In this document: one piece after another, positions 53,485 through 62,835 of the stretch
How the letters are laid out: every line of letters begins with the position of its first letter
How positions within the stretch are numbered: the stretch's first letter is position 1
DNA from: Escherichia phage vB_EcoM-PM133
Strand: one strand, 5' to 3'
Length of the DNA: 64,000 bases
Sequence record: MZ234052.1
Program-made: the position numbers and the translations under genes
The notes under the pieces: generated by a model
Database searches by the model: none
The model's input: the letters and a program-made list of their open reading frames with translations, nothing else
Told to the model about the DNA's origin: nothing

Positions 53485-53939
53485 TGGAATTTAAAGACTT
53501 TTCAACGGGTCTTTATGTAGCAGCTAAGTTTTCAGAATTAACACTTGACGCGCTGGAAGAACTCCAGCGCTCTTTACGTGTTCCTAATCCAGTTCCTAGA
53601 GAAAAAATTCATTCGACCATATGTTATTCGAGAGTAAATGTTCCATATGTTCCATCGAGTGGAAGTTTTGAAGTAGCTTCTTCTGGACATTTAGAAGTGT
53701 GGAAAACACAAGATGGATCGACTCTTGTACTTGTGTTAGATTCTGAATATCTGCGCTGTCGACACATGTATGCGCGGGCACTAGGTGCTACACATGATTT
53801 TGATGATTACACACCGCATATAACATTGTCTTATAATGTTGGGCCCTTATCATTTAGCGGTGATGTACAAATTCCGGTCGTATTAGATCGTGAATACAAA
53901 GAGCCTCTTAAACTCGATTGGGCAGATGATTTAAAATAA
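53481..53939 (+). CDS. 57B: gp57B-like protein with two H-x-T/S-x motifs (2H phosphoesterase-like)
   Basis: 152 aa; HSTI and HITL motifs. Confidence 0.7.
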
Positions 53940-53951
53940 TTTCACAAAGTT

Positions 53952-53990
53952 GTTTACATACTGATGAGGTAGTGATACTATTACCTCATC
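53952..53990 (+). promoter_or_regulatory. early-type promoter (GTTTAC, 18 bp, TACTAT) with 9-bp dyad arms flanking the -10
   Basis: GATGAGGTA gtgatactat TACCTCATC. Confidence 0.5.
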
Positions 53991-54011
53991 AAAATTAATT
54001 AGGAAAATAAA

Positions 54012-54302
54012 ATGAAAACATTTAAAGAATTTACTTCTACTACAACTACCCCGGTTTCTACCATTACCGAAGCTACTCTTACTTCTGAAGTTATTAAAGC
54101 AAATAAATGACGAGAAGGTAAACCAATGATTAGTCTGGTTGATGGCGAAGAAATCAAAGGTACTGTTTATCTAGGTGATGGGTGGTCTGCTAAAAAGGAT
54201 GGTGCTACAATCGTTATCTCTCCTGCTGAAGAAACTGCGTTGTTTAAAGCTAAACACATTTCTGCGGCACATCTCAAGATTATTGCTAAAAATCTTTTGT
54301 AA
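54012..54302 (+). CDS. ipI-position internal-protein-like gene split by an in-frame TGA
   Basis: 32 codons starting MKTFKEF, then TGA followed by C, then 58 further in-frame codons (second ATG at 54126 has its own AAGG SD). Confidence 0.5.
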
Positions 54303-54321
54303 TAAACAATTTCACAAAGTT

Positions 54322-54359
54322 GTTTACATAGGGTTTTAGTTGTGATACTATTACCCTAT
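54322..54359 (+). promoter_or_regulatory. early-type promoter copy with dyad arms (ATAGGGT / ACCCTAT)
   Basis: 23-nt upstream module aatttcacaaagttgtttacata identical to the copy at 53939. Confidence 0.5.
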
Positions 54360-54385
54360 CAAAACAAAACCAAATGGAAATCAAA

Positions 54386-54619
54386 ATGAAAACTTACCAA
54401 GAATTTATTGCTGAAACTGCTGATGTAAAAGTTGAGTTTATTTACACTGGCAAGAAAGATAAAATGGGTGAAATGCCTCATGGAGTTCTTCGTGATGCAT
54501 TAGATAATTTCGGTCAACTCGCCGCAGAAGATTACGGTGATAAAATTGTTGTTACTGGTCCTGCTGCAGTTATTGAAAAATGGGCAGCAGAAAATAAATC
54601 AATTTTTCGTAAAAAATAA
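54386..54619 (+). CDS. internal-protein-like gene with capsid-targeting leader MKTYQEFIAE
   Basis: 77 aa from the ATG that gives the MKTYQEFIAE N-terminus. Confidence 0.65.
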   Translation: MKTYQEFIAETADVKVEFIYTGKKDKMGEMPHGVLRDALDNFGQLAAEDYGDKIVVTGPAAVIEKWAAENKSIFRKK

Positions 54620-54658
54620 GTTTACTTTTAGATAGGGTAGTGATACTATTACCCTATC
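54620..54658 (+). promoter_or_regulatory. early-type promoter with 9-bp dyad arms (GATAGGGTA gtgatactat TACCCTATC)
   Basis: GTTTAC, 18 bp, TACTAT. Confidence 0.5.
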
Positions 54659-54677
54659 TACTACTGAGGAGAATAAA

Positions 54678-54863
54678 ATGAAACGTTGTGAATTAATTCG
54701 AAATGTTGCTATTGCAATTTCTGCTTCCGCTTTCAGTTTTTCAATGTTTGTTGGATTTATATGCGGATTATTGACTACGGCAGAAAATGTTTTTTCACTT
54801 GTAGTAGCATTTTTAATTGGTTTAATTGCTATTGTTATGGATAAAATTTCTAAAGGTGAATAA
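54678..54863 (+). CDS. small hydrophobic (2-TM) protein
   Basis: 61 aa, SD GAGGAG. Confidence 0.5.
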   Translation: MKRCELIRNVAIAISASAFSFSMFVGFICGLLTTAENVFSLVVAFLIGLIAIVMDKISKGE

Positions 54864-55261
54864 TGAACGTTGAATATTATGTATATGCGGATTACGAAAA
54901 TAATCCGTCTAAAGATGAAGATAATCGTTTAGGTGTAGATGCTTTCGATTCCCCTGCGGCGGCATGGCAATGGGTTGAAAGAACCGATATTCCTTACCGT
55001 TATATTGAAGTGGTTGACCACGCAGGAAACAAGTATCCTAAGGAAGCATATGTTGCTTCCGGGAAGGTAAATTTCCTTTTGTTTGCAGGTGATAATTATT
55101 ATCCCCGTGGTGGGTATACCGATTTAATTGCTAAAGCATTCTCTGAAGATGAACTCCGTGACATTATCAAAGAAAATGAAAACAAACCGATGGATTCTAA
55201 TCGCTTTGATTGGTGGCAAATCGTAAATGCTAATACTCACACTATTGTTGATGAAGGCTGA
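54863..55261 (+). CDS. hypothetical protein
   Basis: 132 aa, ATGA overlap. Confidence 0.5.
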   Translation: MNVEYYVYADYENNPSKDEDNRLGVDAFDSPAAAWQWVERTDIPYRYIEVVDHAGNKYPKEAYVASGKVNFLLFAGDNYYPRGGYTDLIAKAFSEDELRDIIKENENKPMDSNRFDWWQIVNANTHTIVDEG

Positions 55262-60574: not shown

Positions 60575-61011
60575 AAACATTATCAGCTGGTATTATCTTT
60601 ATGACAGAAGATAAAGATTTATTTATGGGACGAGTTACCGGTTCTCGTAAACCTGGAATGATTGCACATCGCTGGGATATTCCAAAGGGGCGTGTAGAAA
60701 GTTCTGATTTGAATGCACTGGAAGCTGCAAAAAGAGAATGCTCAGAAGAGACTGGTTTTATCGATTATAATCCAGACCTTCTAGAAGACTTAGGTGTATT
60801 TAAATATTCTAGTAATAAAGACTTACAGTTATTTTATTATACGATTCCAGTAGAGCATGAGATGTTTAGAAATTGCCATTGCGAGTCTTATTTTGAAAAT
60901 AAAGATGGCGTTATGATTCCAGAGATGGATGCTTTTGCTCTTATTCCTCGTACTCAGTGGCAATATGTGATGGGTCCTTCACTTTACCGAATAATGAACA
61001 GCCTCTTTTAA
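60556..61011 (+). CDS. nudE: Nudix hydrolase (NudE-like)
   Basis: 151 aa; Nudix box G-x5-E-x7-REC-x-EETG. Confidence 0.8.
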   Translation: MQEIKMKTLSAGIIFMTEDKDLFMGRVTGSRKPGMIAHRWDIPKGRVESSDLNALEAAKRECSEETGFIDYNPDLLEDLGVFKYSSNKDLQLFYYTIPVEHEMFRNCHCESYFENKDGVMIPEMDAFALIPRTQWQYVMGPSLYRIMNSLF

Positions 61012-61024
61012 TTTATAAATACCT
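61004..61024 (+). promoter_or_regulatory. two tandem late promoter motifs (TATAAATA) upstream of lysozyme gene e
   Basis: tataaata at 61004-61011 and 61017-61024. Confidence 0.5.
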
Positions 61025-61047
61025 TCTATAAATACTTAGGAGGTATT

Positions 61048-61542
61048 ATGAATATATTTGAAATGTTACGTATAGATGAAGGTCTTAGACTTAAAATCTA
61101 TAAAGATACAGAAGGCTATTACACTATTGGCATTGGTCATTTGCTTACTAAAAGTCCATCATTAAGTGTTGCTAAATCTGAATTAGATAAAGCTATTGGG
61201 CGTAATTGCAATGGTGTAATTACAAAAGATGAGGCTGAAAAACTCTTTAATCAGGATGTTGATGCTGCTGTTCGTGGAATTTTGAGAAATGCTAAATTAA
61301 AACCAGTTTATGATTCTCTTGATGCTGTTCGTCGCTGTGCATTAATTAATATGGTTTTCCAAATGGGAGAAACTGGCGTAGCTGGATTCACTAACTCTTT
61401 GCGTATGCTTCAACAAAAACGCTGGGATGAAGCAGCAGTTAACTTAGCTAAAAGTAGATGGTATAATCAAACACCTAATCGCGCAAAACGAGTCATTGCA
61501 ACGTTTAGAACTGGCACTTGGGACGCGTATAAAAATCTATAA
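61048..61542 (+). CDS. e: endolysin (T4 lysozyme)
   Basis: 164 aa; [33 protein letters not shown]; differs from my recollection of T4 at a few residues. Confidence 0.97.
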
Positions 61543-61546
61543 AGTT

Positions 61547-61583
61547 GTTTACTTTCTCCTAGAATTGTGATAGTATATTCACA
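61547..61583 (+). promoter_or_regulatory. early-type promoter (GTTTAC, 18 bp, TAGTAT) with dyad TGTGA / TCACA across the -10
   Basis: upstream of denV. Confidence 0.45.
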
Positions 61584-61601
61584 GTTACTTGGAGGGATAA
61601 A

Positions 61602-62018
61602 ATGACTCGTATTAATTTGACTTTAGTATCTGAACTTGCTGATCAACATTTAATCGCAGAATACCGTGAATTGCCGCGTGTTTTTGGTATAGTTCGTAAG
61701 CATGTGGCAAACGGTAAGCGCGTTAAAGATTTTAAAATATCTTCTAAATTTATTTTAGGTTCTGGTCATGTTACTTTCTTTTACGATAAGTTAGAATTTT
61801 TGCGAAAGCGTCAATTAGACATTATAACGGAATGCTTAAAACGAGGGTTCAGTATAAAAGATACTGAAGTTCCTGACATCAGCGATATTCCAGTAGAATG
61901 GAAAAATGATTATAATCCATGCAAATCAGCTATTAAATTGAGTCAACAACGACTTGATGAAAAAATTTTAATGAAACCACATTGGTATAAGTATTACGGT
62001 AAAAATATTTACATTTAA
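61602..62018 (+). CDS. denV: endonuclease V (pyrimidine-dimer DNA glycosylase)
   Basis: 138 aa; [18 protein letters not shown]-terminus. Confidence 0.95.
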
Positions 62019-62027
62019 AGGAAACAT

Positions 62028-62345
62028 ATGAAAACATATCAAGAATTTATTGCAGAATCTGCCGCAGGACAACGTGTAGAAGGCGGTTATATTTGGATTG
62101 AACAAGTTGAGCCGCCGAGTCGCACTTCTACAGGTAAATGGAAAATCACTGTTGATGGTCCTGGTGGTAAACGTAGGACTCTTAAAGAAATTAACGGGTA
62201 CTATGAAGAAGCTCTTTCAGACGCGGGTACTTATATGATGCAAATTATGATTAAAAACCCAGAAAATCGTTTTGCAGCTAGAGTTTTTCGTCGTATTGGA
62301 AATAAGCTTTACGACGCATATTCTAAAAATTTTCCTAAAGAATAA
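62028..62345 (+). CDS. internal protein (ipII position) with leader MKTYQEFIAE
   Basis: 105 aa, SD AAGGAAA. Confidence 0.65.
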   Translation: MKTYQEFIAESAAGQRVEGGYIWIEQVEPPSRTSTGKWKITVDGPGGKRRTLKEINGYYEEALSDAGTYMMQIMIKNPENRFAARVFRRIGNKLYDAYSKNFPKE

Positions 62346-62361
62346 AAATTAAAGGAATCAT

Positions 62362-62835
62362 ATGAAAACATATCAAGAATTTATCACTGAAGCAGCTATT
62401 AATTCTCAAATTATTGCTGAATCTTTTACTGATCTTTTGAAATTTAAAAAAGGTCAAAAAATCACTGCTGTATTGGATGATGGTACAGAAGTTGAGATGG
62501 ATGTACAGGGATATAATTATGCAGTAGATGGAAAACTGTATAATAAATCTCATGCTAAATTTGATTCATTTGACGACTTTGTTAATACAGTTGAAGATGA
62601 AAAAACTCGTCGATCCATTGCAACCGGTGATGCTAAGGTTCTTATGGCACATGGTCATGAACGCATTCGCGCTAAACAGAATAAAATGGGCGAAGATAAT
62701 TTCGCATTAGTTGGTTATCAATCTGGTAAACAAACTTATGGTTATCAACGTACTGCTACCATGTATAATAAAAATGGTAAAATTGCCTTTGTAAATAGTA
62801 AAGGTTCTATTCAGTACGTTAAATCGTTCAAATAA
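62362..62835 (+). CDS. internal protein (ipIII position) with leader MKTYQEFITE
   Basis: 157 aa; 5' module repeated from upstream gene. Confidence 0.65.
   Translation: MKTYQEFITEAAINSQIIAESFTDLLKFKKGQKITAVLDDGTEVEMDVQGYNYAVDGKLYNKSHAKFDSFDDFVNTVEDEKTRRSIATGDAKVLMAHGHERIRAKQNKMGEDNFALVGYQSGKQTYGYQRTATMYNKNGKIAFVNSKGSIQYVKSFK

Follow-up and report, generated by a model that had tools for sequence, protein, structure and literature searches.

Leader-bearing genes of the window

The DNA analysed here is a 64,000-nucleotide stretch of Escherichia phage vB_EcoM-PM133 (record MZ234052.1; hereafter the window, with positions counted from its first letter). Between positions 53,485 and 62,835, it carries five open reading frames (ORFs), starting at 54012, 54386, 56867, 62028 and 62362, whose products all begin with a capsid-targeting leader of the type found on the internal proteins (Ips) of phage T4. 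Four of them are already-named Ips and correspond to one pseudogene (ipI), one gene with a reported function (ip6) and two genes without a known target (ip10 and ip4). The residual novelty lies in the family of the fifth gene, 56867, which judging from its sequence is probably an overlooked Ip encoded at a third, cassette-like locus. Coordinates of these genes and of the elements associated with them are given in Table 1.

Table 1. Leader-bearing genes of the window and associated elements (aa, amino acids; slashes stand after Glu10 and Glu15)
Feature	Position	Strand	Remarks
Early-promoter module before ipI	53934..53994	+	GTTTACA, 17 nt, TACTAT; reference copy of repeat family D1/D3
ipI (internal protein I, GmrSD inhibitor family)	54012..54302	+	opal-interrupted; N-terminus MKTFKEFTST; leader MKTFKEFTSTTTTPVSTITE
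Second early-promoter module, before ip6	54304..54364	+	84% identical to first copy; scan hit 54323-54351
ip6 (ipVI), 77 aa	54386..54619	+	leader MKTYQEFIAE; phrog_8111 "internal virion protein", E-value 1e-52
Left terminator hairpin, downstream of rnaC	56790..56825	+	36-nt direct repeat D7; scan hit 56793-56816
T4-type late promoter TATAAATA	56823..56830	+	exact match; 36 nt upstream of the 56867 ATG
Candidate internal protein gene, 157 aa	56867..57340	+	leader MKSYTQFLNE/AVLNE/A; phrog_2280, unknown function
Right terminator hairpin copy	57345..57380	+	D7, 94% identical to left copy; scan hit 57348-57371; right flank T4-like
ip10, 105 aa	62028..62345	+	leader MKTYQEFIAE
ip4, 157 aa	62362..62835	+	leader MKTYQEFITE; Pfam DUF7412, E-value 6e-96; phrog_3155 "internal virion protein"

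Leaders were scored with BLOSUM62 against MKTYQEFIAE at the 567 Met positions of the window having 40 or more codons after them; the ipI ORF is too short for inclusion. The four others obtained 51, 51, 47 and 30 while the top unrelated N-terminus reached 20, and this gap (30 or more versus 20) rules out a chance resemblance. The ipI leader is of the longer IPI type (MKTFKEF...ITE) and is that of T4 except for one added Thr. In IPIII, packaging needs the first 10 residues only; residues 4 and 7 are the main determinants of targeting, and residues 8 and 10 those of processing (PMC9026906). These positions correspond to Y4, F7, I8 and E10 in Ip6, Ip10 and Ip4, and to Y4, F7, L8 and E10 in the 56867 product. 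Beyond the leader, the five proteins are unrelated, the lowest non-self E-value in BLASTP being 0.046 over 27 residues, and cross-hits between Ip families in PHROG are restricted to residues 1-28. A preliminary description of this DNA, made from the sequence alone, had proposed both the common leader and the unrelated mature parts, and its core reading, that of T4-type Ip genes with a leader cleavable by the gp21 protease, is right; the common 5' module is a known substrate for the exchange of cassettes.

The same description had attributed a near-identical 5' module (Shine-Dalgarno, ATG and leader codons) to 54386, 62028 and 62362. From -15 to +30, this is true of 62028 and 62362, which match at 40 of 45 nt, but not of 54386, for which only 29/45 nt are shared with the other two; the match there is confined to the leader codons (26-27/30) and the Shine-Dalgarno region is unlike. 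The module of ip10 matches those of T4 ipII and ipIII at 44/45 nt despite the unrelated mature proteins.

When the loci were compared across T-even genomes, 54012, 54386, 62028 and 62362 were found in the two polymorphic ip loci, either downstream of 57B or adjacent to gene e/denV, while 56867 occurs at a new site outside both. That the genes outnumber the three of T4 had been put forward as a surprise. It is in fact expected, since unrelated Ips, in numbers that vary between T-even phages and behind a conserved leader and 5' module, have been on record from 1994 onwards (Repoila et al., cited in PMC3012670 and PMC12373910). Ten or more Ips, diverse and having only the capsid-targeting sequence in common, are reported at two loci in T-even relatives (PMC12373910). 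Among the loci fetched here, RB33 has four named Ips (Ip5, Ip9, Ip7 and Ip4), T6 has Ip5 and Ip6, and T2 has Ip4 in addition to two Ips at the first locus. Four of the families show an accessory distribution, with matches in 511 phage records for the 56867 family, 470 for Ip4, 245 for Ip6 and 189 for Ip10.

The ipI and ip6 genes

The DNA of ipI is 99% identical to that of T4 but has an in-frame TGA at 54108-54110, after codon 32, at a position where T4 has GGA (Gly), a single G-to-T change that had been missed when 54012 was first described as a gene. The remainder stays in frame up to 54302 and the Pfam family IPI_T4 (PF11634) matches across the stop with an E-value of 9e-53. An intact 76-residue mature IPI* domain does not occur in the window since the TGA falls after mature residue 12; the intact ORF thus amounts to the leader plus 12 residues and, judged on its sequence, this copy is very probably inactive. 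The two ipI halves are entered in GenBank as separate hypothetical proteins.

Whether the stop reflects an error of sequencing or assembly, or is subject to read-through so that functional IPI is made and all five genes are active, was also considered. The stop is a lone G-to-T change in a gene that is otherwise conserved at 99%, and its context is UGA-C, a leaky terminator in E. coli. Such an explanation is nevertheless improbable: the opal allele is common to three deposited genomes (PM107, PM108 and 101117BS1), and a read-through of a few percent would leave the product far below the ca. 300 copies that T4 IPs reportedly reach in each head (PMC9026906). Rescue of ipI by an opal-suppressor tRNA was ruled out, no opal-suppressor anticodon being found in the phage tRNA cluster.

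The first early-promoter module has the same sequence as the region upstream of T4 ipI, and a sigma-70-type scan places the ipI early promoter at 53953-53981. A third copy of the module starts at 54602, and the early-promoter copies together with the leader, repeated at this first ip locus, provide sequence on which cassettes can be exchanged. Each of the three modules also contains a hairpin (53962-53991, 54328-54359 and 54630-54659) with the TACTAT -10 in its loop region. The one upstream of ipI (53962-53991) has a 10-bp stem, stems differ by compensatory changes (TGATGAGGTA/TACCTCATCA versus AGATAGGGTA/TACCCTATCT), and one of these hairpins is labelled "potential stem-loop" in an old T4 record.

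The product of ip6 is 98.7% identical to T6 "Ip6", has a homologue named "ipVI" in phage PST and is identical at 77 of 77 positions to Bas37_0260 of phage KarlGJung. The GenBank record of PM107 puts the start of ip6 at 54374, four codons too early with regard to T6 and Bas37, in which it begins at MKTYQEF. Deletion of Bas37_0260, whose product has an Ip leader, was reported to render the phage specifically sensitive to McrBC (HIDEN-SEQ preprint, 2025; 10.1101/2025.11.20.689424). There is no difference at the protein level, and the same function may hold in the window phage.

The ip10 and ip4 genes

At the second ip locus (61048-62835), the order is e, denV, ip10, ip4 while T4 has e, ipIII, ipII, denV; T6 has no ip gene at the gene e/denV locus and Bas37 has none after denV in the loci compared. 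The product of 62028 is named "Ip10 internal head protein" in PP01, SP18 and VR25, and RB69ORF124c is 95% identical to it. The product of 62362 is 100% identical to a T2 protein and bears the label "Ip4" in ime09 and RB33. In the Ip4 family, a second Glu besides Glu10, Glu20, is invariant within an (I/L/M)-x-E context (here IIAE/S, 62362-62424), and the Ip4 propeptide may, from this pattern, be 20 rather than 10 residues long.

Overall, the Ip genes of the window resemble those of T4 by their leader, by the Shine-Dalgarno, ATG and leader module, by their location at two loci and by mature parts that are small, mostly basic and mutually unrelated, ipI being the same gene in both. They differ in that the window ipI has an opal codon and that ip10 and ip4, placed beyond denV, take the place of ipII and ipIII. 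With respect to the Ip4-Ip10 families of T2, T6 and RB phages, to which Ip6 (T6), Ip10 (PP01, SP18, RB69) and Ip4 (T2, RB33) belong, no material difference was found, and the combination of an ipI pseudogene and ip6 with ip10 and ip4 represents a further way of arranging cassettes already known.

A fifth gene located between rnaC and e.8

The gene at 56867 was spotted by the preliminary description and missed by annotation. Its product is a "hypothetical protein" in database proteins and among the matches listed from the 511 phage records. The mature part is predicted to have a mass of ca. 15.5 kDa and an isoelectric point of 9.6, and would thus be basic like the other Ips found here. Upstream, rnaC maps to 56604-56742 and is followed by the left hairpin; the late promoter TATAAATA begins seven bases past the stem of this first hairpin, overlapping the T-tail of the terminator. 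The succession of a terminator, a late promoter, the gene and a second terminator defines a monocistronic late cassette.

In T4, rnaC and e.8 are separated by 284 non-coding bases, and alignment with the window reveals a 555-bp insertion at this place whose edges coincide with the 36-nt hairpin repeat. T4, T2, T6 and Bas41 have a single hairpin and lack the gene. The hairpin-promoter-gene-hairpin arrangement is found in PM107, teqdroes, Bas35, Bas37, Bas44 and RB33, as well as in the Mosigvirus mobillu with the promoter variant AATAAATA, while the Jiaodavirus KEN39 has another hairpin followed by TATAAATA and then by the 56867 homologue. The position of TATAAATA is kept in six other phages of two genera (teqdroes, Bas35, Bas37, Bas44, RB33 and KEN39). 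On the basis of these sequences, recombination between the two hairpin copies could delete the cassette, leaving the arrangement of T4, and its gain may follow the same route. The phrog_2280 locus would be present in some 500 of the sequenced T-even-like phages, from several genera.

In the leader of 56867, E10 is followed by Ala, and five residues further on by a second LNE-A. The leader differs at two positions from MKSYQEFLNE, which together with MKTYQEFLNE is among the leader variants of the accepted Ip4 family. A strict position matrix made from the canonical leaders and applied to the 567 N-termini of the window did not single it out (see below) and the case therefore rests on its homologues and on the conservation of the family. 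A homologue with 78% identity, P0003, begins with MKTYNEFL and obtains 21.3 bits for a background maximum of 11.2. Other starts are MKTYNEFLNE, MKTYNEFL..TE and MKSYAEFLTE and, in relatives with only 26-40% identity, MKFKEFLAE, MLKFNEFLAE, MKSFSSFLNE and MINFSDFLNE. A profile search of 1.8 billion representative proteins returned only 13 relatives (E-value of 0.001 or below); except for one odd ORF call, those aligned all begin with the leader, and the search yielded no leaderless homologue from which a function could be inferred.

These data bear on a first alternative, in which 56867 would encode an ordinary late cytoplasmic accessory protein whose N-terminus derives from an ancestral recombination with an Ip 5' module and has since lost its targeting capacity. 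Compatible with this are a leader in which half of the 10 positions depart from the consensus, a 5' module that matches the canonical ones at only 26-30 of 45 nt, and the fact that no annotation labels the gene an internal protein. A vestigial leader should however decay, while M-x-x-(Y/F)-x-x-F-(L/V)-x-E persists at 26-40% overall identity, its conservation equalling that of the best domain: between distant members of the family, identity is ca. 46% in the leader, 44% in the N-terminal domain and 21-26% in the C-terminal half. Two adjacent phrog_2280 paralogues of Yersinia phage fHe-Yen9-01, located after TATAAATA, have the leader (MLQYNEFLKESLISE and MLEYSEFLKELFCE) as the sole part found similar by BLASTP. 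All four targeting and processing residues are kept in 56867, and a homologue, g140 of Yersinia phage fD1 (98.7% identical, by coordinates), is listed as particle-associated on the basis of tandem mass spectrometry coupled to liquid chromatography (LC-MS/MS), as is the Ip4 homologue g129. This alternative is thus considered unlikely, although it is the more serious of the two raised for this gene.

The fHe-Yen9-01 region (KY593455.1; L014, 2700-4537) contains three neighbouring leader-bearing ORFs, namely the two phrog_2280 paralogues and an ORF of 52 aa starting with MKTYIEFINE.

In a second alternative, the 56867 product would be packaged as an accessory component of the scaffold or core, like gp67, gp68 or IPIII, rather than as an injected anti-defence effector. 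The gene has a strictly late promoter as do head structural genes, and a contribution of IPIII to head morphogenesis has been reported (PMC9026906). T2, T4, T6 and Bas41, which are devoid of the gene, nevertheless have normal heads, indicating that it is dispensable for assembly, and genes for host range or anti-defence typically show such presence or absence within accessory cassettes. There is little to recommend this second explanation.

Packaging of the 56867 product through its leader is thus retained as the favoured, if far from certain, prediction from sequence. Several points weigh against it or against the broader Ip interpretation. On the strict matrix, the leader scores 6.3 bits and ranks 10 of 567, unseparated from background. 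The gene lies away from the two loci regarded as Ip hotspots, and expert annotation that labelled Ips in RB33 and T6 left this gene unlabelled; in RB33, it is the only one that was passed over. The fD1 list gives no N-termini and is permissive: it comprises 113-137 of the 277 phage proteins along with 672 from the host, and DenV, lysozyme and NudE are among its entries, so that detection of g140 discriminates weakly. A fold search with the predicted structures of 56867 and Ip4 gave no functional hint, and the McrBC role of Ip6 is reported in one preprint.

Searches for function

Among these proteins, Pfam names just IPI_T4 and DUF7412. No significant match was obtained in NCBIfam, or in PDB sequence searches with Ip6, Ip10, Ip4 and 56867. 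The profile searches that had been suggested for the mature parts, like the PDB searches, provided no functional lead for 56867, Ip4, Ip10 and Ip6. In the AlphaFold model of 56867, the leader has low confidence and precedes a small helical domain, after which come a Pro/Lys linker and a helical hairpin. Nothing usable was found in the literature on Ip4 and Ip10 or on virion proteomes of fHe-Yen9-01 and of fPS phages.

Other features of the window

The gene map of the window is that of T4 with local differences, and each of the stretches 53900-57400 and 61500-63000 is 100% identical to Escherichia phages vB_EcoM-PM107 and PM108 (Tequatrovirus). In the direction of transcription, gene 1, 57A and 57B are followed by the ipI locus, trna.4-.2, ten tRNAs, rnaD and rnaC, and then by e.8 to e.2, nudE, e, denV, two ip genes and vs.8. 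Two coding sequences entered in GenBank, PM107_247 (56558-56686) and PM107_248 (56692-56853), overlap rnaD (56481-56597) and rnaC (56604-56742) and are almost certainly spurious ORF calls.

Two full-length Alt-like ADP-ribosyltransferase genes that are 41% identical occur in tandem at 2302-4359 and 4363-6420, with TATAAATA nearby at 2274. Both products start with MELITELFD, the Alt propeptide cleaved by gp21, and the phage may, on this sequence evidence, inject two different Alt enzymes. Like the Ips, Alt has an N-terminal propeptide removed by gp21 and is packaged and injected; unlike them, it has a MELITE leader, is 685 aa long and is an enzyme.

Finally, the N-terminus of gp2 (DNA end protector, 51006-51830), MAIFQIINE/S, ends in I-x-E and loosely resembles a capsid-targeting leader; gp2 of Klebsiella phage KEN39 starts with MAIFEFITEAAE, which is nearer to such a leader.

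Discussion

Taken together, the region is very likely a set of polymorphic Ip gene cassettes of Tequatrovirus, the fifth leader-bearing gene encoding a likely further packaged and injected protein. In the proposed scheme, the N-terminal capsid-targeting sequence, with the core M-K-(T/S)-(Y/F)-x-(E/Q)-F-(I/L)-x-E, would bind the scaffolding core during prohead assembly and be cut off by the prohead protease gp21 after the Glu of (I/L)-x-E; the small, mostly basic mature protein would remain in the head, be injected with the DNA and neutralise a specific host nuclease attacking the modified phage DNA. Packaging, cleavage and anti-restriction are documented in the literature for Ip1-3 and Bas37_0260, Ip1, Ip2 and Ip3 of T4 each inhibiting a different GmrSD type IV restriction enzyme (PMC12373910). 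For 56867, Ip4 and Ip10, we infer packaging, cleavage, injection and any anti-defence role by analogy. By analogy with Ip1-3 and Bas37_0260, the most likely role of these mature parts would be to inhibit type IV or other DNA-targeting defence.

The preliminary description had considered the extra genes as uncharacterised anti-defence candidates. This stands for Ip10 and Ip4, which have names only and remain candidate anti-defence proteins by analogy, and does not apply to 54012, which is ipI, or to 54386, which is Bas37_0260; mature regions matching characterised Ips were found for these last two only.

Regarding 56867, the chances are about even that the phrog_2280 family (56867-57340 here, RB33_134, Bas37_0244 with 98% identity, fD1 g140) forms a class of packaged, injected, anti-defence Ips located at a third ip locus. 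Its absence from T2, T4 and T6 would explain why it was not noticed. Processing of 56867-type proteins could be checked in a public proteomics dataset, that of the fD1 virion (PXD026812): if g140 is cleaved by gp21 after Glu10 or Glu15, peptides AVLNEASSTEIQAVAK or ASSTEIQAVAK would be expected without SYTQFLNEAVLNEASSTEIQAVAK.

Injected Ips are the first phage molecules to encounter host immunity, and work from 2025 identified them as inhibitors specific for type IV restriction enzymes, Ip1-3 acting on GmrSD variants and the Ip6-type on McrBC. Each new leader-bearing family is thus a candidate inhibitor and can be used to probe for a host nuclease yet to be identified. With the fifth gene the search becomes wider, since leader-bearing genes are to be sought genome-wide and beyond the two classical loci. 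If the interpretation given here for phrog_2280 is true, its mature protein would inhibit a host defence that has not yet been paired with a phage inhibitor.

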